Origin: Pseudomonadota bacterium
GTDB lineage: Bacteria > UBA10199 > 2-02-FULL-44-16 > JAAZCA01
NCBI GenBank assembly: GCA_043798915.1
Contig: JAZDOG010000040.1
Location: forward strand, 1 to 29,978
Reading direction: 5' to 3'
Length of the DNA stretch: 29,978 nt
Positions 1 through 22,120 of the stretch are shown here, piece by piece; positions within the stretch are counted from its first letter, which is position 1; each line of letters opens with the position of its first letter. The notes under the pieces are model-generated. The model saw only the letters and a program-made list of their open reading frames with translations, had not been told where the DNA came from and ran no database searches. The position numbers were made by a program, and so were the translations under genes.

Positions 1-22
1 TGACAATTTACGGCAAGCATTT

Positions 23-115
23 TCCCCTCCTTTGTAAGGAGGGGATAGGGGAGGTAGATCAGCATTGAAACGGCGGTCTACCCCACCCTGACCCTCCCCT
101 TACAAAGGGGAGGGA
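23..115. repeat. REP-like palindromic doublet (two GC-rich hairpin units in inverted orientation)
   Basis: Unit tcccctcctttgtaaggaggggataggggaggtaga (23-58) faces tctaccccaccctgaccctccccttacaaaggggaggga (77-115). A near-identical doublet lies at 22040-22120. Confidence 0.85.
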
Positions 116-159
116 AACGTCACTATATTATGCAGTCATCACTAAAGGGATTAATAAAA

Positions 160-1575
160 ATGAAATTCTCTATAGGGTATAATCATGACATTAAATTATT
201 GGATCTGCTGGATGTTTATAAAGATAATATCGAGGCCCTTTATTTTCCAATACCCCGCCAATACCTAGGTTCTGGGAGGCATATTCCTCAAAAAAATGGT
301 TATTTAAATGAAATCCCAGAGATAATTAAAAAATGCGCCTCGTTAAACATAAAATCTCAGCTGCTATTAAATGCAACATGTGAAGGAGAATCGGGACTGG
401 AGAAAAATTTCTTTTCAAAAATTATTGATTATATGCAAGGACTGAAAGATTTAGGATTAAAAAGCGCAATCGTTACGAATCCTGCCTATATCTCCGAGAT
501 AAAGGAGCAAATTAAAGAAATTGAAGTGGAATCATCTGTCAATTGTTATGTTAAAACAGTGGAACACGCTTTATATCTTAAAGACTTGGGCATAGACATC
601 CTGACTATTGATAGGGATATAAATCGAGACATATCTTTGATTAAGGAAATCAAAGATAAAACGGGGCTTAAAATAAGGCTGATGCTTAATGAAGGATGTT
701 TAAGGAATTGTCCCTTTAGAAAAATGCATTTTAATTTTATAGCACACACAAAGCCAAAATCCAAAGCTGAGATGATAGGTGGAATTTTTTTTGAGAAGTG
801 GTGCATGAAAATTTTATCCCAAAACCCCGCAAAGATTTTCAGCGTTCCGTTTATTCCGCCGGATGCTTTAAAATATTATACCCGATTTGTAGACTATTTT
901 AAAATTTCATGCCGGGATTCTCGCACTTCTCAAATTGAATTTCGTTTAAAAGCGTATATAAGTCAAAATTTCAACGGCAATCTGCTGTCATTGTTGGACT
1001 GTTCAGGCCTTGCCCCATATTTCAGATACATTGATTCAAGGGTGCTCAATGAAGGTAATTTTTTTAAAAGAATGCTTGAATGCACTGGCAACTGTGACGA
1101 ATGCAATTATTGTCGTAAATTAGTAAACAGGGCAGTTATAACTGACAGCTGTTTTTTAGATCCGACTCATCCCATTAGAATTAAAGAAAGTGAAAAGGCT
1201 GTAAAGATATACCGAAGGATTTTAAAAACTTTTCCATTTGAAGGCGCTATTTATCTGGGTTTAACCAGAGCCTACTTTAGGCTCAAGAACTATGGAGAAG
1301 CAATCAAAAAAGCAAAGAAGGTAATCGAATTGGATTATAAAGATAAAGAAGGTAATATCCATTTTCTTTTGGGTTTTTGTTATGAGAAAACCAAACAATA
1401 TAAGAAGGCAATCGGGGAACTTAAAAAAGCGCAGAGAATAAGCCCTCAAGAGCCTCAGGTAAATTTCTCTCTTTCTAATTGCCACAGAAATATTAATCAA
1501 ATAGAACAATCCAATAAAGAATTAGAGAAAGGGTTTTTAAAATTTAAGAAATCTAAACAAATGTCCAATTCTTAA
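160..1575 (+). CDS. U32-family protein (putative Fe-S hydroxylase) with C-terminal Cys cluster and TPR repeats
   Basis: Motifs SSVNC, DRDINRD, LMLNEGCLRNCPF..H and FKISCR (equivalent of U32 LKIEGR), then CTGNCDECNYC. The last ~120 aa are TPR-like (IYLGLTRAYFRLKNYGEAI; HFLLGFCYEKTKQYKKAI). The ORF track starts at 130; ATG 160 is preferred because AAAGGGA lies upstream. Confidence 0.8.
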   Translation: MKFSIGYNHDIKLLDLLDVYKDNIEALYFPIPRQYLGSGRHIPQKNGYLNEIPEIIKKCASLNIKSQLLLNATCEGESGLEKNFFSKIIDYMQGLKDLGLKSAIVTNPAYISEIKEQIKEIEVESSVNCYVKTVEHALYLKDLGIDILTIDRDINRDISLIKEIKDKTGLKIRLMLNEGCLRNCPFRKMHFNFIAHTKPKSKAEMIGGIFFEKWCMKILSQNPAKIFSVPFIPPDALKYYTRFVDYFKISCRDSRTSQIEFRLKAYISQNFNGNLLSLLDCSGLAPYFRYIDSRVLNEGNFFKRMLECTGNCDECNYCRKLVNRAVITDSCFLDPTHPIRIKESEKAVKIYRRILKTFPFEGAIYLGLTRAYFRLKNYGEAIKKAKKVIELDYKDKEGNIHFLLGFCYEKTKQYKKAIGELKKAQRISPQEPQVNFSLSNCHRNINQIEQSNKELEKGFLKFKKSKQMSNS

Positions 1576-1590
1576 AAGTAAAAATTCAAC

Positions 1591-2445
1591 ATGAAGAATT
1601 TCAAGTTAGCCTCCCGCATTGAAAAAAAGAACAGAACGATCGTTCGCGTCCAGGATGTGCAGGTGGGCGTTGGTTTTATTATTATCGCGGGCCCCTGCAG
1701 CGTGGAAAATGAAAAGCAGATGATCCAAACGGCCCAGAAAGTAAAAGAGGCTGGCGCAAATATGCTGCGGGGCGGCGCATTCAAGCCCCGCACTTCGCCG
1801 TATGATTTTCAAGGCCTTGGCATCAAGGGATTAAAAATTCTGGGAAAGGCAAAGAAGGAAACCGGTTTGCCAATCGTCACCGAGGTCATGGATGCCAGGG
1901 ACGTCTCCTGGGTGTATGAATATGCAGATGTGCTTCAAATTGGTTCACGCAATATGCAAAATTTTACATTATTGAGAGAGGTGGGAAAGCTGGATAAACC
2001 TGTTCTCCTGAAGAGGGGGATGTATTCTACGCTTGAGGAGTGGCTGGGTTCAGCAGAATATATATTATCAGAGGGAAATCCAGATGTCATATTGTGTGAG
2101 AGGGGCATTCGGACGCATGAGACCTATACGAGAAGCACCCTGGATTTGAGCATCGTTCCGTCTTTGAAAGAGGTTACCCATCTTCCTGTCATTGTTGACC
2201 CATCGCACAGCACGGGGCGACGCAGCCTTGTGGAGCCGATGAGCCTTGCAGCGGTCGCCGCAGGGGCGGATGGCCTCATCGTAGAGGTTCACCCCAATCC
2301 GGGCAAAGCCTTGAGCGACAAAGAACAACAAATAACACCCGCCATGTTCTCTTCGCTGGCTCAAAAAATAACGACCCTTCATTCCTGTATGGTAGAGATG
2401 AACGGCAACACGAAAAAAGGAAAGATCAAACATGCAGTCGATTGA
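1591..2445 (+). CDS. aroF: 3-deoxy-7-phosphoheptulonate (DAHP) synthase, type I-beta, catalytic barrel only
   Basis: IAGPCSVE, RGGAFKPRTSPYDFQG, IGSRNMQN, LKRG, CERGIRT, DPSH motifs. 284 aa with no N-terminal ACT or chorismate mutase domain. Confidence 0.95.
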   Translation: MKNFKLASRIEKKNRTIVRVQDVQVGVGFIIIAGPCSVENEKQMIQTAQKVKEAGANMLRGGAFKPRTSPYDFQGLGIKGLKILGKAKKETGLPIVTEVMDARDVSWVYEYADVLQIGSRNMQNFTLLREVGKLDKPVLLKRGMYSTLEEWLGSAEYILSEGNPDVILCERGIRTHETYTRSTLDLSIVPSLKEVTHLPVIVDPSHSTGRRSLVEPMSLAAVAAGADGLIVEVHPNPGKALSDKEQQITPAMFSSLAQKITTLHSCMVEMNGNTKKGKIKHAVD

Positions 2446-3460
2446 AATCCGCGGAACAACCGGCGGTTCAAAAATCCTTATAGGTGAGTCATTTAAAAAT
2501 CTGGGCGCCTATGTCGGTACGCGAAGATCCATCATCATTACCGATTCCAACATATTGCATTGTTACCACAAAGATTTTTCTCCCTACGAGATAATAGAGA
2601 CGGGATCGGGTGAGAGCATAAAGAACCTCCGTACGGTGGAACACATATATCATAAGCTCATTGAATGTAATGCGGATCGATCCTCCTTTATCATCGGCGT
2701 CGGCGGAGGAGTAGTCTGTGATATCACAGGATTTGTCGCATCAACTTTTTTAAGGGGGATAGATTTTGGTTTTGTGCCCACGACGCTTCTCTCACAGGTC
2801 GATGCAAGCATAGGCGGGAAAAATGGCGTAAATATTGACGGCTATAAGAATTTAGTTGGCGTTTTCAATCAACCTGAGTTTGTTCTATGTGACATCTCTT
2901 TTCTGAATACCCTTTTCGCAGACGAAGTTCTCAATGGTTTAGCAGAGATTGTGAAATGCGCCGTGGTAGGCGACGCTCGTCTATTCAATTTTTTAGAACA
3001 TAATTATCACGAGGTTCTGAATCTTGATCGAAAAATAATGGAACGCCTGGTGTTCGATGCTGTAGCCTTTAAGGCATCCATCGTAAACAATGACGAGAAG
3101 GACAACAATGAAAGGATAAAATTGAATTTCGGCCATACTTTTGGTCACGCCATCGAAAAAACGGAAGGCATCCCGCATGGCCGCGCGGTAAGCATCGGGA
3201 TGGCCATCGCCACAAAGCTTTCCGTTATGCGCAACCTGCTGGAACCATCCGCTGCGAACAGGATTGAAACGCTTCTTCTGTCGCTGGGATTACCCATAGA
3301 ATTTAATTCAGACAAAGATCAAATCAAGGATGCCATCAGAAAAGACAAGAAACACAGGGGCAATTCTATTGCAGTCGTTCTCTTAAAGGGGCTTGGCGAA
3401 GCCGTCATAGAAGAAATATCGATCACAGATATGGAGGCGGTTATCGATGATATGCGTTAG
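2432..3460 (+). CDS. aroB: 3-dehydroquinate synthase
   Basis: GGGVVCDITGF, PTTLLSQVDASIGGKN, LNFGHTFGHAIE; start overlaps the upstream gene. Confidence 0.96.
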   Translation: MQSIEIRGTTGGSKILIGESFKNLGAYVGTRRSIIITDSNILHCYHKDFSPYEIIETGSGESIKNLRTVEHIYHKLIECNADRSSFIIGVGGGVVCDITGFVASTFLRGIDFGFVPTTLLSQVDASIGGKNGVNIDGYKNLVGVFNQPEFVLCDISFLNTLFADEVLNGLAEIVKCAVVGDARLFNFLEHNYHEVLNLDRKIMERLVFDAVAFKASIVNNDEKDNNERIKLNFGHTFGHAIEKTEGIPHGRAVSIGMAIATKLSVMRNLLEPSAANRIETLLLSLGLPIEFNSDKDQIKDAIRKDKKHRGNSIAVVLLKGLGEAVIEEISITDMEAVIDDMR

Positions 3461-4085
3461 CATCTCAACAGCCGGTTTCAAATCATGCATGAAATCCCTG
3501 CGGGACGCGGAACTGGCTGAGATCAGGTTGGATAAGGTTGGTCTCTCTGATGAAGAAATCAATAAACTCTTTTCCTTGCCGTTGAAGACGATCGCCACGT
3601 GCCGTCCGAGCGCGCTTTCCTCCGTAAAAAGAATGGAGCGCCTCAAAAAAGCCATTTATGCTGGTGCTCATTACATCGACATTGAACTTGAGGCCTCCAA
3701 TAGTTACAAAGCTGAATTGTTGCGGGCAGCAAGAAATCACGGCTGCAAAGTCATCATCTCTCACCATGATAATGACAAGACACCAGGCAGAACATGTTTA
3801 AAATCTATCGTAGACCGATGCTTTGATTCAGGCGCAGACATCGCAAAAGTAGCTTGTTTTTCAAGATCCCGTGCGGACAACGCGAGAATTCTTTCGCTTT
3901 ACGATGACGATCGAAACATCATAGCTCTAGGACTTGGGAGCATAGGGCAATTTACAAGGGTGGCTGCAATTTTATTGGGCGCGCCATTTACGTATGCCTC
4001 GCCAGCTAAAGGAATGGAAACCGCAGCGGGCCAGCTGGATAAAAAAACTTTATCGAAGATTCTGGAGAATTTGAAAAGTGTCTAA
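3447..4085 (+). CDS. aroD: Type I 3-dehydroquinate dehydratase
   Basis: AEIRLD, IATCR, YIDIE, IISHHD, ADIAKVA, TR..A..LGAPFTYA and TAAGQL motifs; operon context. Confidence 0.92.
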   Translation: MICVSISTAGFKSCMKSLRDAELAEIRLDKVGLSDEEINKLFSLPLKTIATCRPSALSSVKRMERLKKAIYAGAHYIDIELEASNSYKAELLRAARNHGCKVIISHHDNDKTPGRTCLKSIVDRCFDSGADIAKVACFSRSRADNARILSLYDDDRNIIALGLGSIGQFTRVAAILLGAPFTYASPAKGMETAAGQLDKKTLSKILENLKSV

Positions 4086-5397
4086 AACGAACATTTATGC
4101 CGTAGCAGGCACGCCCGTGCTTCATAGCAAAAGCCCTGCCATATTTAATGCATTATTTAATGCTCATGCTGTTGATGCAATATATACGCGCATCGCCGCC
4201 CGTTCAGCGGATGAGGCCATTTATCTTTTCAGGGAAATTGGTCTGGCTGGAATGAACGTCACTTCGCCATTTAAAGTGGAGATCGCATCGCATCTCGACT
4301 TCATCGATCCCGAGGCTTCCTCCATAGGGGCTGTCAATACAATACTGAATAAAGACGGGGCGCTCTGTGGCTATAATACCGATCATATAGGTGTCGTTAA
4401 GTCTCTGCTGAAAAATGGTGTAAATATAGCCGGCGCCAAGTGTATCGTTCTCGGCGCCGGAGGAGCTGGAAGAGCCGCGGCCTACGGCCTCTTAAAATAT
4501 GGCGCAGATGTCATAATGATCAACAGAACGTTCGATAAAGCCAAAAGAGCAGCATCTGCTTTAGGTTGTCGGGCTGAAAAATATGAAACATTGAAGAAGT
4601 TTATAGAACAGGCGGATGTGCTTGTCTCTGCTGTCCCCACCGGCACCTGCTCCATAAACGCGGCTTCCCTTAAGAAAGAGCTCGTCGTGCTCGATGCAAA
4701 TTATCTGCCTCCGTCCTTTTCTGAAGGGACGTCGGGCAGTAAAATCTTCCGCATCGGTGGTGAGGAATGGCTCGTTCAACAGGCCATTCCGTCATATAAA
4801 TATTTCACTGGTCTCGATCCCGATGAACATCTTATGAGCGAAGCAGCATCACTGCCGACTCGTCCAAAAGGAAGCAATATATCCTTAATCGGTTTTATGT
4901 GTTCCGGCAAAAGCAGCGTCGGAACGTGTCTTTCACAAATATTGCGTTTGGAGCATATCGACACAGACGATTACATCCAGCAGGCCTCAGGCAAAGCAAT
5001 TCGAAACATCATCGATTCAGAGGGTGAGAACAGTTTCAGGCTCCTAGAGAAAAAGGCGATTCTGCAGCTGAACAAGCGCTGCAGCACGGTCTTGTCGTGC
5101 GGAGGCGGCGCTGTTATCGATAGTCGCAACAGATCAGTTCTCAGGGATAACTCTTTGGTAGTATGGCTTTATTCTTCACCTGAATCGATTGTGACAAGGC
5201 TTGATGGGGGATCGAGACCTCTCTTGGACGGCATCAATCCCATCCACAAGGCAAAATCAATGCTGAAAGACAGACTTGCATTTTACGCCGATGCTGCAGA
5301 TATTATCGTGGCAAGCGATGGAATGAGCCCAAAAGAGATTGCCGATAGAATACATGAGGAAATCAGTTCTGCCTTCAAAAATATCTGGAATTATTAA
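4078..5397 (+). CDS. aroE: Shikimate dehydrogenase - shikimate kinase fusion (AroE-AroK)
   Basis: N-terminal HSKSP, NVTSPFK, GAVNT, GYNTD, LGAGGAGRA, INRT. C-terminal P-loop GFMCSGKSSVG, DTD, SCGGG, RPLL. GTG start. Confidence 0.93.
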   Translation: MSKTNIYAVAGTPVLHSKSPAIFNALFNAHAVDAIYTRIAARSADEAIYLFREIGLAGMNVTSPFKVEIASHLDFIDPEASSIGAVNTILNKDGALCGYNTDHIGVVKSLLKNGVNIAGAKCIVLGAGGAGRAAAYGLLKYGADVIMINRTFDKAKRAASALGCRAEKYETLKKFIEQADVLVSAVPTGTCSINAASLKKELVVLDANYLPPSFSEGTSGSKIFRIGGEEWLVQQAIPSYKYFTGLDPDEHLMSEAASLPTRPKGSNISLIGFMCSGKSSVGTCLSQILRLEHIDTDDYIQQASGKAIRNIIDSEGENSFRLLEKKAILQLNKRCSTVLSCGGGAVIDSRNRSVLRDNSLVVWLYSSPESIVTRLDGGSRPLLDGINPIHKAKSMLKDRLAFYADAADIIVASDGMSPKEIADRIHEEISSAFKNIWNY

Positions 5398-6604
5398 GGC
5401 GCCGGCGTCCAAGAGCATGACGCAGCGTGCGATCGCTGCCGCATTTCTATCCAAAGAAGGGACCGCAATATTAAATCCTTCGTTCTGCACTGACGCGATT
5501 TCCGCGATGCACATGGCTGAAGGCCTTGGAGCTGTAATTGAGAAAACCCCGGAAAGGATTATTGTAAGGCGCGGGTCAGAATCCCATTTAAGCAGACTGG
5601 ATTGTGGCGAATCTGGTTTTTGCGTCAGGATGTTCTCACCGATCGCAGCTCTTTTTGACAAAGAGATCACACTCTCCGGAGCAAAATCGCTTGCGGGAAG
5701 GCCTCATAAAATGATCGAAGCCCCGCTTCGGGAACTTGGCGCCGAGTGTTCCACTCGTGATGGTCATCTGCCGATTCAAATAAAGGGTCCGATTCGAGGT
5801 GGAGTGGCTCACGTAGACGGCTCAATTACTTCACAATTTCTTTCGGGGCTGCTCATCGCGCTTCCGGTAATAGCTGACGACACTGAAATTATCGTATCGA
5901 ATCTCAAAAGCAAGCCATACATCGACATGACTTTGTCTGTGCTGGACAAATTTGGCATCGCCGTCGAGCACTCAGGCTACGAGCGTTTTTTCATAAAAGG
6001 CCGCCAGAGCTATTGTGCTGAAGAATACGCAGTCGAAGGCGACTGGAGCGGTTCGGCCTTCATGATGGTCGCTGGGGCAATAGGTGGAAGCGTTGAAATT
6101 ACCGGGCTAGACATCACTTCCAGTCAAGGCGACGTAGCTGTATTGGATATCTTAAATGCCTGTGGTGCTGGCATCAACATCGGCACTGGGAGCATAACAG
6201 TATCAAAAGCAAATCTTCACTCCTTTAGATTTGATGCGGCTGAGCATCCTGACCTTGTTTTGCCCCTCGCAATTTTAGCCTGCAATTGCGGTGGAATCAG
6301 TTATATTACAGGCTTGGAGCGATTGCAGCACAAAGAGAGCGACAGGGCTTTATGCTTATATCGCGGGCTTTCGAAATTGGGCGCCGATATAATCCTCAGA
6401 AACGATTGCATGGAAATTAACGGCAGCAAATTGACAGGCGGTTATTTTGACCCTTGCGGCGATCATAGACTTGTGATGGCCGCGGCTGTGGCCGCGATTG
6501 CTTCGAAGGAAAGAGTGGTTATCGATCAGTGCGAATGCGTATCAAAGTCTTATCCAGATTTCTTTGAGGATATCATCGGCATAGGAGTAAATATCCATGA
6601 ATAG
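5354..6604 (+). CDS. aroA: 3-phosphoshikimate 1-carboxyvinyltransferase (EPSP synthase)
   Basis: PASKSMTQR, CGESG, TSQFLSGLL, EGDWS, HKESDR, DHRLVMA, KSYPDFF. ATG 5354 preferred over TTG 5339. Confidence 0.96.
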   Translation: MRKSVLPSKISGIIKAPASKSMTQRAIAAAFLSKEGTAILNPSFCTDAISAMHMAEGLGAVIEKTPERIIVRRGSESHLSRLDCGESGFCVRMFSPIAALFDKEITLSGAKSLAGRPHKMIEAPLRELGAECSTRDGHLPIQIKGPIRGGVAHVDGSITSQFLSGLLIALPVIADDTEIIVSNLKSKPYIDMTLSVLDKFGIAVEHSGYERFFIKGRQSYCAEEYAVEGDWSGSAFMMVAGAIGGSVEITGLDITSSQGDVAVLDILNACGAGINIGTGSITVSKANLHSFRFDAAEHPDLVLPLAILACNCGGISYITGLERLQHKESDRALCLYRGLSKLGADIILRNDCMEINGSKLTGGYFDPCGDHRLVMAAAVAAIASKERVVIDQCECVSKSYPDFFEDIIGIGVNIHE

Positions 6605-7589
6605 CTTTGGAAGGCTTTTCAGAATCAGCGTCTATGGCGAATCTCATGGACAATCCGTGGGTGTCGTAATCGACGGATGTCCTGCCGGAATCCCGCTCTC
6701 GGAAAAAGATTTTGAAAAAGATCTCATGGAACGGCGATCCGGAGCAAGAGGCACCTCCACGCGCAGGGAGCCTGATAAACCGATTATTATGAGCGGCCTC
6801 TTCCGTGGGAGGACGACAGGCGCTCCGCTCACAGTGCATTTTAGAAATACTGATGTCGATTCGAAAACTTATAAATCCGTAAGGGACATTCCAAGGCCCG
6901 GACATGCTGATTATGTGGCTGTGAAAAAATATGGCGGATTCAATGACCACAGAGGCGGGGGTCATTTTTCCGGAAGAATGACCTTGGGGCTCGTGGCATC
7001 AGGCGTGGTTGCAAAGAAGCTGATCCTTCCGATGAAAGTGCGCGCACATCTGGTTGAAGCAGGGGGAGACGCCAATATAGCGCAAGCTGTTGAATGCGCT
7101 CTTAGTAGTGAGGATTCAATAGGCGGAATCATCGAGTGCATTGTCATTGATGTGCTTCCGAAACTCGGCGAACCTTTTTTTGATTCCGTCGAATCGCTTG
7201 TAAGCCATGCGATGTTTTCGGTTCCCGGAGTGAAGGGAATCGAGTTCGGGGCCGGTTTTGCATCGGCTCGAATGCGCGGAAGCGAGTATAATGACCCCAT
7301 TATCAGCGCTCGCGGAAAAACGAAAACCAACAATTGCGGCGGTATAAATGGGGGTATTACAAATGGAAACGACCTTTTGCTCAGGGTTGCTGTAAGACCC
7401 CCATCGAGCATAGGGGCTATCCAGCATACATATGACTTCGTGAAGAAGAAGCGGGTTCGAGTATCAATACCGGGAAGGCATGATGCATGCATCGCACTGA
7501 GGATGCCGGTGATTGTTGAGTCCGTAGTCTCTGTCGTGCTCGCGGATTTGTGCCTCCTTGACCAACAGCTGTCACGCGTGACGAGGTAA
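6597..7589 (+). CDS. aroC: Chorismate synthase
   Basis: GESHG, RPGHAD, GGGHFSGR, NNCGGINGGITNG, GRHDAC. Confidence 0.96.
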   Translation: MNSFGRLFRISVYGESHGQSVGVVIDGCPAGIPLSEKDFEKDLMERRSGARGTSTRREPDKPIIMSGLFRGRTTGAPLTVHFRNTDVDSKTYKSVRDIPRPGHADYVAVKKYGGFNDHRGGGHFSGRMTLGLVASGVVAKKLILPMKVRAHLVEAGGDANIAQAVECALSSEDSIGGIIECIVIDVLPKLGEPFFDSVESLVSHAMFSVPGVKGIEFGAGFASARMRGSEYNDPIISARGKTKTNNCGGINGGITNGNDLLLRVAVRPPSSIGAIQHTYDFVKKKRVRVSIPGRHDACIALRMPVIVESVVSVVLADLCLLDQQLSRVTR

Positions 7590-7592
7590 CCC

Positions 7593-8657
7593 ATGAACCT
7601 GGCCGAAATCAGAAAGGAAATCGACCACGTCGATTTAAGGATTCTGAAGCTGCTCAATGAAAGAATGGAACGCGTGCTGATCGCGAATAAATTCAAGGCC
7701 GCCATCGACGACCCCAATAGAGAGAAAAACATCCTGGATGGAGTGAGAAGGCATTCAGGAATGATCCTTGAGCCTCGTTCATGTGAAATATTATTTAAGG
7801 AAATAATGAAAATAAGCAAAAGGCTTCAAGCAAAAGATCATCGCTTAATTGCCTTTCGAGGCGAACATGGGAACTATAATGAGCTGGCAGCGACACAGTG
7901 GAAAGACAATCTTATTCCAATTCCGTGCCGGGAATACGAGGATGTGTTTGAAGGCATCAGCTCAATGTATTACGATTATGGAATTGTGCCGATGGAGAAC
8001 ACGCTCGATGGGTATGTTGGCCCTTCCGTCGATCTTCTGATGGGCACAAATCTCTTTGCGGCTGACTCCGTTCAAATGCCAATACATCACTGTCTTCTTG
8101 CTATCCCCGGAACTGACCATCGTGAAATCAGAATTGTTTATTCACACCCTCACATACTTTCGCAGTGCAGGCGTTTTTTGAGCAGGAACAAGCTTGTTCC
8201 AAAACCTTATCATGACTCTGGAGCTGCGGCAAAATGGCTTGCGGAGGAGGCCCCCGGAGATTCCGCCGTCATTTCGAGCAAATTTGCGGCAAATCTCTAC
8301 AACCTGGAAATCCTCAAGGAGAACATTGAAGATATCAAAGCGAATAAGACGAGGTTCCTGGTGTTCAGTCGAAATAAAAATCAAAAACCCAATTCCAAAA
8401 ACAGCATCATCATATCGACAGATGACAAGACCACAACGCTTTTGAGGATATTGGAATGCTTCGTCAAAGAGGGCGTCAATCTCACAAGTGTTGAGTCAAT
8501 ACCGAGGCAATTGGGCAAGCATACGTTCATGCTCGATTTCATCGATTCGGGGAAAGACGGGAAGGTTTCAAAAGTGATAAATCGTGTTAAAAAGATGACG
8601 ATCGATTTTAAATATTTAGGCAGCTATAATGAAGTCGAGGTCGTTGAATCGAATTAG
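7593..8657 (+). CDS. pheA: Chorismate mutase (AroQ) - prephenate dehydratase - ACT (P-protein); dehydratase and ACT motifs atypical
   Basis: AroQ domain (LAEIRKEIDHVD..NER..K..DPNRE..S..Q); PDT domain with ENT, SHP and TRF motifs; C-terminal ACT-like region with NLTSVESIP. Confidence 0.9.
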   Translation: MNLAEIRKEIDHVDLRILKLLNERMERVLIANKFKAAIDDPNREKNILDGVRRHSGMILEPRSCEILFKEIMKISKRLQAKDHRLIAFRGEHGNYNELAATQWKDNLIPIPCREYEDVFEGISSMYYDYGIVPMENTLDGYVGPSVDLLMGTNLFAADSVQMPIHHCLLAIPGTDHREIRIVYSHPHILSQCRRFLSRNKLVPKPYHDSGAAAKWLAEEAPGDSAVISSKFAANLYNLEILKENIEDIKANKTRFLVFSRNKNQKPNSKNSIIISTDDKTTTLLRILECFVKEGVNLTSVESIPRQLGKHTFMLDFIDSGKDGKVSKVINRVKKMTIDFKYLGSYNEVEVVESN

Positions 8658-8681
8658 CACTAATTGGGGCCAGGGGGCAGG

Positions 8682-10070
8682 ATGAAAAAAGCGATCAAGG
8701 CAGGCCTCATATTCGTCATCCTGTGTCTGTTGTCTCCCATTCCAGCCAGAGGCCAGGGCAGGACGATCTACCGCATAACCCTCGAAGACGACATCATAAA
8801 CCCGGTCACCTCCGAGTACATCACCACATCCATCGAGAGGGCCGAGCGCGACGGCGCCCTCTGCCTCATCATCGAGCTCGACACGCCAGGCGGGCTTCTG
8901 ACCTCCACGCGCACGATCGTGAAGGGCATCATGAACGCGCGCGTCCCCGTCGTCGTCTACGTGGCGCCGAAGGGCGCGAGGGCCGGCTCCGCGGGCGTAT
9001 TCATCACGCTCGCCGCAAATATCGCGGCGATGGCGCCGGGGACAAACATAGGCGCGGCGCACCCGGTGGAAATCGAGGAGCGCCGTTCGACCGGGGATTC
9101 GCTCGAAGATATTCTGGGCAGGATATTCCAGAAGGACGCCAAGGAGAAGAAGAAGGCCGCGAAGGCAGCCGCCGCTCAGCCGATGGAACAGAAGATCCTC
9201 AACGACACAAAGGCATGGGCCGAGGCGATCGCCCGCGAGCGCGGGAGAAATGCGGCATGGGCCTCGTCGGCCGTCACCGAGAGCGTCTCCGTCGCTGATG
9301 CCGAGGCATTGAAACTCGGGATCATCGACATCGTCGCGGCCGACACGGCCGACCTCGTCGCAAAACTCGACGGGCGGAAGGTGAAGATGGCGGAAGGCAC
9401 CGCCACGATCGAGACCCGCAATGCCACCATCGTCGACATCCCGAAGAATTTCCGCCTCCGCTGGCTCTCGGCCCTCGCGCATCCGAACATCGCCTATATC
9501 CTGATGATGCTTGGGTTCTACGGCCTGCTCTTCGAATTCACCCACCCGGGCATCGCGTTCCCCGGCATCGCCGGGGCGGTCTCGCTCATCCTCGCGTTCT
9601 TCGGCCTCCAGGTGCTGCCCACGAACTACGCCGGCGTGGCGCTCATCGTGCTCGCGATCGCGATGTTCATCGCGGAGATAAAGGTCGCGAGCTACGGCCT
9701 GCTCACCGTCGGAGGAGTCATCACCCTCTTCCTTGGCTCGCTCATCCTCTTCTCGTCGCCCTACGACTTCATGCGCGTCTCGATTCCGATCGCGCTGGCC
9801 TTCACTCTCGCGACGCTTGCGGTCGCGTCTTTTCTGGTCTTCATCGTCGTCCGGTCCAGAAAGCGGCGCGTCGTCACCGGCCTCGAGGGTATCGTGGGAG
9901 AACGCGGCGGGGTCAAGAGCTGGAAGGACGGCAATGGCAAGGTCTTTGTCCACGGCGAGCTGTGGGACGCCACATCAAACGAGACACTTGCAGTCGGTAC
10001 CAATATCGAAGTAGTTTCGGTTCAAGGGATGACAGTTGTTGTAAAACCAAGTACTCAGAATTTCAACTGA
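8682..10070 (+). CDS. nfeD: NfeD-family membrane-bound serine protease (long form: ClpP-like domain, TM region, OB fold)
   Basis: Signal peptide, [26 protein letters not shown], hydrophobic TM block, [12 protein letters not shown]; paired with an SPFH gene. ATG 8682 preferred. Confidence 0.93.
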
Positions 10071-10080
10071 AGGAGGTCCT

Positions 10081-10836
10081 ATGCCGTCACCGATGATGAT
10101 TTTTGTGGGTTTCATCGTTCTCTATCTCCTCTCGTGCGTGAAGATCCTCAAGGAATACGAGCGCGGCGTCATCTTCCGGCTGGGGAGGCTCCTCTCGAAA
10201 CCCAAGGGGCCCGGGATTATCTTCGTCTTCAAGCCAGTGGACAAGATGGTCCGCATCTCGCTGCGCCTGGTCGCGTTCGACGTCCCGCCTCAGGACATCA
10301 TCACGAAGGACAACGTCTCGGTGAAGGTGAGCGCAGTCATATACTTCAGGGTGATGGACGCCAACAAGGCAGTGACGGACGTCGAGGACTTCGGCTTCGC
10401 GACGAGCCAGATGGCGCAGACGACACTGAGGAGTGTCATCGGGCAGAGGGAGTTGGACGACCTCCTCTCCGAGCGCGACAAGATCAACGCACAGATACAG
10501 GAGATCCTCGACAAGCAGACCGAGCCGTGGGGGATCAAGGTGTCGAACGTCGAGGTGAAGAACGTCGATATCACCGAAGAGCTCAAACGCGCGATGGCGA
10601 GACAGGCAGAGGCCGAGCGCGAGAGGAGGGCAAAGGTGATCAACGCCGAGGGCGAATTTCAGGCCGCGGCAAAGCTCGTCGAGGCGGCAAAACTTATCGA
10701 AGTCCACCCGGTGGCACTGACGATGCGCTATCTGCAGACGCTCGTCGAGATCTCGAGCGAGAACAACACGACCACGCTCTTTCCCATCCCGATCGATTTC
10801 ATCAAACCGTTTATGGAGAAGCTGCAGCAGAAGTAG
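10081..10836 (+). CDS. SPFH/stomatin-like (slipin) protein
   Basis: [63 protein letters not shown]. Confidence 0.95.
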
Positions 10837-10984
10837 CGCATTCAAAAACTCTCCCTCCCTTGATGGGAGGGAGTCAGAGGGAGGGTGACCTTGCAACATT
10901 CTTTCACCCGGTCTTCATCGCCCCCCTCACCCTGACCCTCTCCCACGAGGGGAGAGGGAAAAGAGTTGCATGCACCTGAATAGT
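10835..10984 (+). repeat. ~150-bp REP/MITE-like element, copy 1 (inverted relative to the copy at 12485-12637)
   Basis: ctccctcccttgatgggagggagtcagagggagggtgacc...ccctgaccctctcccacgaggggagagggaaaagag...catgcacctgaata aligns along its length with the reverse complement of 12485-12637. Confidence 0.9.
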
Positions 10985-10988
10985 CACT

Positions 10989-11324
10989 TTATTTGCATGG
11001 TTTCCACGGCAGATTGTAGCACGTGGTCTTTTTCCGCTCGACCTTGCCCGTCGCGGGGTCGCAGTAGAATTGGCCTTCCCTCGGCTCGTAGCATTTTTTG
11101 GTCGCCTTGTCCCTGCCGTACTTGCAGCCGCTCTTTCGGATATCACCCATGTTGCAGCTCAAGTTTGCGCCTTTCTTTTTCCCCTTCTCGGCCCCCTGCC
11201 TCGATTCGCTCGATGGTGCCTTGACCGCCCACAGCTCAGCCAGACCCAGCCGACATCCGCTGAAACTAAGCTGGATCAAAAGAGCCGCCACAACAAAAAT
11301 CACAAGCGATATGACAATCTTCAT
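10989..11324 (-). CDS. Small secreted Lys/Cys-rich hypothetical protein (111 aa)
   Basis: Hydrophobic N-terminus MKIVISLVIFVVAALLIQLSFSGC and 7 Cys. The ORF track's upstream extension comes from the repeat. Confidence 0.65.
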   Translation of the reverse strand: MKIVISLVIFVVAALLIQLSFSGCRLGLAELWAVKAPSSESRQGAEKGKKKGANLSCNMGDIRKSGCKYGRDKATKKCYEPREGQFYCDPATGKVERKKTTCYNLPWKPCK

Positions 11325-22039: not shown

Positions 22040-22120
22040 CCCCCTTCTTTGTAAGGAGGGGCCAGGGGAGGTAGACCATGATCTACCCCACCCTGACCCT
22101 CCCCGTACACAGGGGAGGGG
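22040..22120. repeat. REP-like palindromic doublet, same family as 23-115
   Basis: ccccttctttgtaaggaggggccaggggaggtagac...tctaccccaccctgaccctccccgtacacaggggagggg. Confidence 0.85.

Follow-up and report, generated by a model that had tools for sequence, protein, structure and literature searches.

Introduction

In Escherichia coli, the bifunctional P-protein PheA (b2599) combines a chorismate mutase (CM), a prephenate dehydratase (PDT) and an ACT domain in one chain. A role in the PDT is described for the TRF motif and for E159 (PMC13217925, PMC8192741), part of the first PDT motif lines the cleft in GqqA (Y16, S17; PMC8192741), and GALV and ESRP are given as regulatory motifs of the ACT domain (PMC13217925). 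Two variants of E. coli pheA, G309C (PMC3182895) and deltaT304/G305K/deltaQ306 (PMC6199770), have been used as feedback-resistant, active alleles, both papers crediting Nelms et al. 1992. Here we describe a natural PheA changed in the same ACT loop, encoded by the last gene of a shikimate operon in a Pseudomonadota bacterium (assembly GCA_043798915.1); the window analyzed was the whole contig that carries it (JAZDOG010000040.1, 29,978 bp). The explanation favored, with somewhat better than even confidence, is a working CM/PDT enzyme which ends an acquired shikimate operon and has probably lost its control by phenylalanine (Phe).

The protein shares the three-domain order of the E. coli enzyme, yet its gene has no pheL-type leader and closes a shikimate operon. 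As in the feedback-resistant alleles, the ACT loop is altered while the catalytic domains are intact; those alleles, however, were made in the laboratory in a regulated enzyme, whereas the present change arose naturally, and another ten positions that the clade conserves in the ACT domain differ as well. Among solved structures, the best matches to the PDT and ACT domains together are the Chlorobium tepidum PDT with bound L-Phe (2QMX) and the Brucella PDT (6VH5), at target-normalised TM values of 0.80-0.82, although neither has a fused CM, and both show G-S-L / ESRP-type or related ACT motifs where the analyzed protein has T-T-L / ESIP.

At the level of gene order, the closest systems are aroF-aroB-aroD-aroEK-aroA-aroC-pheA-tyrA operons of uncultured Spirochaetota, Marinimicrobia and others (L077, L026, L037, L038, L044), which have the same order up to pheA with 40-75% identity per gene. 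There, the gene after pheA is usually one for a prephenate dehydrogenase of 257 aa, and the set is not headed by a U32 gene, whereas in the host genome (G000) tyrA is missing, a U32-like gene with TPR repeats (U32-TPR) stands in front, and PheA alone is accelerated. This neighbor may be related to the U32 hydroxylases UbiU/UbiV, TrhP and RlhA, having a weak U32 match and conserved cysteines, but differs from them in the restricted extent of that match, in a TPR tail and in an aro linkage that is not conserved. UbiU/V, TrhP and RlhA are prephenate-dependent (PMC10990095, PMC6599085, PMC5727448), and in a delta-pheA delta-tyrA background prephenate-dependent UbiU/V is restored by plasmid-borne full-length PheA or by the CM domain alone (PMC10990095).

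Integrity of PheA and conservation of catalytic residues

The pheA gene (7593..8657, plus strand) begins 3 nt after the aroC stop codon and is an intact open reading frame (ORF) for a protein of 354 aa, in which Pfam CM_2 (51.3 bits) and PDT (PF00800; 173.5 bits against a gathering threshold of 25.2, residues 86-262 on profile positions 1-180 of 181) were recognized. The AroQ CM domain spans residues 1-82 (7593..7838), the PDT domain residues 83-262 (7839..8378) and the ACT regulatory domain residues 263-348 (8379..8636). The latter has strongly diverged in sequence: at the default Pfam threshold no ACT match was obtained in the full protein, and the C-terminal 92 residues alone scored 20.8 bits, under the 27-bit cut-off, where two relatives reached 38.6 and 28.8 bits. 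Nevertheless, its fold appears to be retained, since in an AlphaFold2 model of the protein (24-sequence alignment; mean pLDDT 85.4) residues 269-345 form a canonical beta-alpha-beta-beta-alpha-beta ACT domain (block pLDDT 70-91). The model matched the full-length PDT-family chains 6VH5, 7AM0, 2QMX, 3MWB and 2QMW in Foldseek (target-normalised TM 0.78-0.85), and the top PDB sequence match was 2qmx_A (E 2.3e-40), with 6VH5 also among the best solved relatives, all of them PDTs.

Based on an alignment with E. coli PheA (translated from NC_000913) and 108 full-length family representatives (one per 50%-identity cluster), CM positions R7, R24, K35, D40, R43, E44, S75 and Q79 are all identical to their E. 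coli counterparts (R11, R28, K39, D48, R51, E52, S84 and Q88). In the PDT domain, E135/N136, H185, Q191 and T253-R254-F255 (TRF codons at 8349-8357) are retained, corresponding to E. coli E159/N160, H209, Q215 and T278-R279-F280. A sequence-only reading of the locus had listed R7, R24, K35, R43, E44, S75 and Q79 as the AroQ catalytic positions and TRF 253-255 as kept, and both statements were borne out. Across the whole protein, 46 of 49 family-wide conserved positions (>=80%) are unchanged, the exceptions being A210G, G281T and I300V.

Other residues are rare in the family. Among the 108 representatives, N94 occurs once, N96 never, H187 in 6, I188 in 4, S209 in 12, G210 in 5 and T281 in 1, and N96 was found in 0 of 225 other P-proteins. 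When compared with ten syntenic relatives, all the motif changes are unique to this PheA: GEHGAYSE to GEHGNYNE, SH(P/S)QAL to SHPHIL, DTAGAA to DSGAAA, and HK(A/S)GTLF to DKTTTLL. The deviations pointed out in the sequence-only reading are thus real, except that two of the forms it listed are the norm of the clade: GEHG (H92 is invariant in alignment A1) and, as that reading had allowed for, ESIP, with S-I/V-P in all but one of 23 relatives of the same alignment. The isoleucine of ESIP, which differs from the ESRP of E. coli, is present in 8 of the 108 representatives.

Domain-specific divergence

Identity ratios and profile scores were used as the measure of evolutionary rate, synonymous sites being judged saturated because the nearest PheA relative is only 55% identical in protein. 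At matched divergence (pairs at 46-56% overall identity; 1613 control pairs), the PDT identity of the analyzed protein was 0.560 vs. 0.548 in controls and the CM identity 0.468 vs. 0.411, while the ACT identity was 0.416 vs. 0.497; its ACT/PDT identity ratio was the lowest of 130 sequences. Domain profiles were also built from 107 distant representatives, and on these the protein, set beside 117 clade relatives, scored 83.2 for CM (relatives 84.9 ± 6.6; z -0.26), 229.5 for PDT (253.1 ± 6.7; z -3.5, the lowest) and 84.1 for ACT (112.1 ± 3.9; z -7.2, the lowest), values that describe the data and are not probabilities, as the clade relatives share ancestry.

An operon-internal control was also calculated, namely the ratio of G000-to-relative identity to relative-to-relative identity across ten syntenic loci. 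The six shikimate genes gave ratios of 0.95-1.07 and PheA 0.86, which by domain corresponded to 0.96 for CM, a normal evolutionary rate, 0.88 for PDT and 0.73 for ACT. Setting a questionable gene against the other genes of its operon in syntenic loci in this way is usable as a control for claims of motif erosion in general. Where at least 95% of 118 clade relatives share a residue, the protein is altered at 1 of 16 positions in CM, at 12 of 57 in PDT and at 11 of 29 in ACT, against mean changes of 0.46, 1.41 and 0.45, respectively, for clade members in the same test, and five clade-conserved glycines are now D, N or T. In the wider family, as many rare PDT substitutions occur in 73 of 225 proteins, and as many rare ACT substitutions in only 17 of 225. 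The asymmetry is therefore real; it is most marked in ACT and mild in PDT, with family-conserved residues spared.

A targeted remodelling of the PDT active site was considered and dropped, given that the changes are not enriched in the cleft motifs (Fisher, odds ratio ~1, p = 1.0).

The term "eroded", applied to the dehydratase in the sequence-only reading, is overstated in view of the PDT bit score, the 46 of 49 conserved residues kept and the PDT identity at matched divergence, yet an excess of change in PDT and ACT is measurable. The further claim that the enzyme consumes prephenate poorly found no support, every strongly conserved PDT residue being kept.

The ACT loop and a predicted weakening or loss of feedback inhibition

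Residues 276-282 of the protein (TDDKTTT) align to E. coli 304-310, placing T281 (codon 8433-8435) opposite G309. At this position Gly is found in 101 of the 108 representatives, and T-T-L-L stands for G-A-L-V, so that neither of the Phe-sensing ACT motifs, GALV and ESRP, is present. Because T281 sits at the G309 position of feedback-resistant E. coli alleles, weak or lost Phe inhibition is predicted. Weak or absent inhibition, rather than loss of the dehydratase, is thus the most likely consequence of the observed replacements, and the earlier suggestion of an enzyme "without Phe control" is plausible in the light of a Thr that occurs only once among the representatives.

The DAHP synthase of the same operon is a bare catalytic core of 284 aa, whose match to NF006421 begins at profile position 67 of 338. 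If the missing N-terminal part is regulatory, as we take this extension of the model to be, the core would fit an allosterically unregulated pathway.

Organization of the operon and absence of tyrA

All genes from DAHP synthase to pheA lie on the plus strand and were assigned by Pfam: DAHP synthase I-beta core (1591-2445), aroB (2432-3460), type I aroD (3447-4085), an aroE-aroK fusion (shikimate dehydrogenase and shikimate kinase, 439 aa; 4078-5397), aroA (5339-6604) and aroC (chorismate synthase; 6597-7589). Co-transcription of the operon is inferred from gene spacing only; a scan of 1-11000 was at chance for promoter-like (14 vs. 14.0 expected) and terminator-like elements (15 vs. 11.6 expected), with no plus-strand terminator after the U32-like gene or after pheA.

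Twelve related loci share the order DAHP synthase-aroB-aroD-aroEK-aroA-aroC-pheA, and a 13th does so except that no aroE-K was detected; the aroE-aroK fusion is common to the syntenic relatives. In nine of these 13 loci an ORF of 257-258 aa lies 3' of pheA (e.g. L077:11053-11826), and four of six tested ORFs downstream of pheA in relatives proved to be prephenate dehydrogenases. In the host genome the foreign DNA ends with the last codon of pheA, leaving the operon truncated before tyrA; PDH_N (prephenate/arogenate dehydrogenase, tyrA) had no match anywhere in that genome (97.23% complete).

The shikimate genes and the U32-like gene are present there in single copy and pheA encodes the sole PDT. 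Three strong class I/II aminotransferases could complete Phe synthesis, and TrpA had no match in the genome. The single chorismate-binding match is weak and lies in a 389-aa high-GC ORF on another contig (G000:C23:9916-11085; L129:1453-2622, minus strand). This match reached 42 bits over profile positions 158-247 of 257, and a thiD-like kinase gene adjoins the ORF, which could encode a divergent PabB/TrpE-like protein and a possible native chorismate consumer.

Foreign origin of the segment and probable integrity of the contig

In order to place the operon in the host lineage, its occurrence in related genomes was considered. PDT and U32 were each found in 0 of 12 genomes of the host family and in 0 of 9 from the rest of the order, and chorismate synthase in 0 of 12 and 4 of 9, respectively. 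Since all three are absent from the 12 family genomes, the 8.7-kb low-GC segment that carries them is foreign to the host lineage. Two compositional layers are distinguished within it by GC content at third codon positions (GC3): 0.32 in the U32-like gene and 0.47-0.55 from DAHP synthase to pheA, against 0.79-0.91 in nfeD and beyond (genome mean GC 0.577). On the right, the compositional boundary falls in a short spacer that follows the pheA stop codon (8658..8681), and beyond it lies nfeD, which is native and high in GC (ATG at 8682, GC3 0.82).

On the left, positions 1..135, at the contig end, are a copy of a palindromic repeat that gave 112 blastn matches over many host contigs, with another copy at ~22041-22119 of the window. 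The same 135 nt form the ends of contigs C42, C77, C99 and C73, so that the repeat breaks the assembly. The ends of C73, C99 and C77 carry toxin-antitoxin genes, an integrase and unknown genes, and no peptide-modification or aromatic genes were found there. Because the left 135 nt are a host repeat, host-type DNA flanks the low-GC segment on both sides, which argues for a real insertion over a chimeric contig.

In the genome as a whole, 81 of 1122 2-kb windows fall below GC 0.50, with long runs on C99, C46 and C98, which suggests many foreign islands or a heterogeneous bin.

The U32-like neighbor and its relatives

The first gene of the segment (160..1575, plus strand) ends 15 nt upstream of the DAHP synthase gene and encodes a cysteine-rich U32-like protein with C-terminal TPR repeats. 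Its match to Pfam U32 (PF01136) is weak (29 bits) and limited to profile positions 3-86 of 233, and it matched PDB 5d88 over residues 49-192 (E 6.5e-6). In the 471-aa form, cysteines C59, C129, C180, C184 and C215, together with C308/C312/C315/C318, are conserved in 93-100% of 120 homologues, the second group (C308-C318) forming a C-x3-C-x2-C-x2-C cluster. Homologues 81-89% identical to the protein include several named Omnitrophota or Omnitrophica. The 120 homologues as a set carry mostly Omnitrophota names, with some archaea and Margulisbacteria.

Positions 153-1596 of the window share 90% nucleotide identity with metagenome contigs L122 and L123 (37-41% GC), while the nearest relatives of the aro genes are 55-75% identical. 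As GC3 and the distance to the nearest relatives differ so sharply, the U32-like gene and the aro-pheA genes have shared only a short evolutionary history. No aro genes were found in seven loci with U32-TPR relatives (the closest 84-89% identical), of which only L123, L124 and L126 had enough flanking sequence to be judged. In these three the neighbors vary: the gene is next to a deaminase, a PEMT-like and a band 7 gene in L123, to a P-type ATPase in L124 (with a radical-SAM gene ~4 kb off), and to V-ATPase subunits in L126 (where a radical-SAM gene comes immediately downstream).

In L123, the band 7/SPFH gene (8577-9464) is located ~0.8 kb downstream of that for U32-TPR, and in the window nfeD is likewise followed by a band 7 gene (10081-10836). 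The two are 39% identical and the window copy has host-like GC, the shared neighbor probably being a coincidence.

Conversely, U32-TPR homologues were searched in 80 loci of PheA relatives (43-54% identity; 1.12 Mb) by tblastn and with a profile, and were found in 0 of 80; this profile was built from the U32-TPR subfamily alone and recovers the window copy, so that a canonical U32 gene near pheA relatives could escape it. No further pheA copy linked to this U32 family was observed among these loci, and the proposal of the sequence-only reading that PheA feeds the U32 enzyme, drawn from the adjacency in this one contig, is not backed by conserved linkage. The adjacency of U32 and aro genes is unique so far and compositionally recent, and cannot have driven a long adaptation of PheA.

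Discussion

The sequence of events that would best account for these observations starts with the horizontal gain of an operon leading from shikimate synthesis to phenylpyruvate, with pheA as its last gene, after which PheA would provide the only route of the genome to phenylalanine. Following the split from its relatives, the PDT domain and especially the ACT domain would have changed faster than CM and the six operon partners, while the catalytic residues of both enzyme domains stayed; with the conserved Gly of the Phe-binding loop lost and 11 of 29 clade-conserved ACT positions altered, feedback inhibition would be weak or absent. Both the activity of the enzyme and its escape from Phe control are predicted from residues and alignments, and several observations weigh against so simple an account. 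The PDT domain is the lowest-scoring of 118 clade sequences (229.5 vs. a mean of 253.1, SD 6.7), although these sequences share ancestry, and a fifth of its clade-conserved positions (12/57) are altered. The protein is below the NCBIfam equivalog cut-offs (NF008865, 186.8 vs. 219; NF008866, 182.8 vs. 359; and NF007910, 143 vs. 577, in which it differs from E. coli PheA). Moreover, changes fall in the GxxGxYS, SHPQAL and DTAGAA motifs, making a lowered or altered dehydratase activity possible, and their even spread over motif and non-motif conserved sites would also fit plain relaxed selection.

Relaxed selection without adaptive meaning would imply that, in a host that imports amino acids, the last gene of the operon drifts by AT-biased Gly/Ala loss to a hypomorph or pseudogene. 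The equal incidence of changes in and outside the motifs, the replacement of five clade-conserved Gly by D, N or T, a host family that lives without the pathway and the absence of the tyrA gene that lies 3' of pheA in relatives are all in line with this explanation, which is considered improbable in view of a frame open over 354 codons, a CM domain and six upstream genes that are not accelerated, 46 of 49 family-wide conserved residues spared and a fold that is confidently predicted. The contig could also be a chimera of two or three organisms, in which case pheA would encode the regular PheA of some other, low-GC organism and its neighborhood would be uninformative. Three sharp GC3 layers, the position of the low-GC part at the contig end and a contamination estimate of 3.26% for the metagenome-assembled genome would agree with a chimera, but each junction is located in a short spacer that separates intact genes of the same strand and the host repeat at 1-135 puts host-type DNA on both flanks, making it very unlikely; besides, the findings internal to PheA hold regardless. 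A switch of the dehydratase to another substrate, e.g. arogenate as in the plant ADTs, would be compatible with unique substitutions in cleft-facing motifs and in the ACT domain, whose residues set prephenate vs. arogenate use in Arabidopsis ADTs (PMC13217925). However, no dedicated prephenate aminotransferase was identified and the fused CM would hand over prephenate directly, and we give such a switch hardly any credence.

The neighboring gene suggests a different role for the pathway, in which a U32-like Fe-S protein would use prephenate as oxygen donor, the pathway having been gained for the sake of prephenate and the dehydratase weakened or deregulated so that a pool persists. This is consistent with the position of the U32-like gene 15 nt upstream on the same strand, with the prephenate requirement of UbiU/V, TrhP and RlhA (PMC10990095, PMC6599085, PMC5727448), with the finding of PDT and U32 in 0 of 21 family and order genomes and, in the host, only on the 8.7-kb segment, with the lack of PDH_N and TrpA matches, by which the pathway is not a general aromatic amino-acid one, and with an acceleration that affects PDT and ACT and not CM. 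Against it stand the strongly conserved PDT residues, all kept, the lack of the U32-TPR family in all 80 PheA-relative loci, the variable, aro-free neighborhoods in L123, L124 and L126, and the different histories of the U32 and aro genes, by which the changes in PheA are no long adaptation to the neighbor. In addition, a weakened dehydratase is not needed to feed U32 enzymes, because wild-type, full-length E. coli PheA suffices (PMC10990095). A role as prephenate supplier is therefore regarded as unlikely. A more elaborate form of the same idea, equally to be held as doubtful, is a self-contained "oxygen-donor module" in a lineage without the shikimate pathway, assembled out of a U32-TPR Fe-S enzyme and a complete shikimate-to-prephenate operon, each of separate foreign origin; tyrA would have been dropped and ACT and PDT loosened, and prephenate would be made constitutively and partly spared for the anaerobic hydroxylation of peptide or RNA. 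Radical-SAM genes occur near U32-TPR relatives in two of the three loci that could be judged.

If this less probable reading were true, the locus would be of greater importance, since a dedicated supply of prephenate beside a U32-type enzyme would give genomic support to prephenate as a general anaerobic oxygen donor, as proposed in PMC10990095, beyond quinone and RNA modification. If, as favored here, PheA is a working CM/PDT that ends an acquired operon and has lost Phe control, it would represent a natural PheA without such control, in an organism with relatives that are unable to synthesize aromatic amino acids. The locus would then be a modest example of a horizontally gained pathway and might yield an enzyme that is feedback-insensitive by nature.

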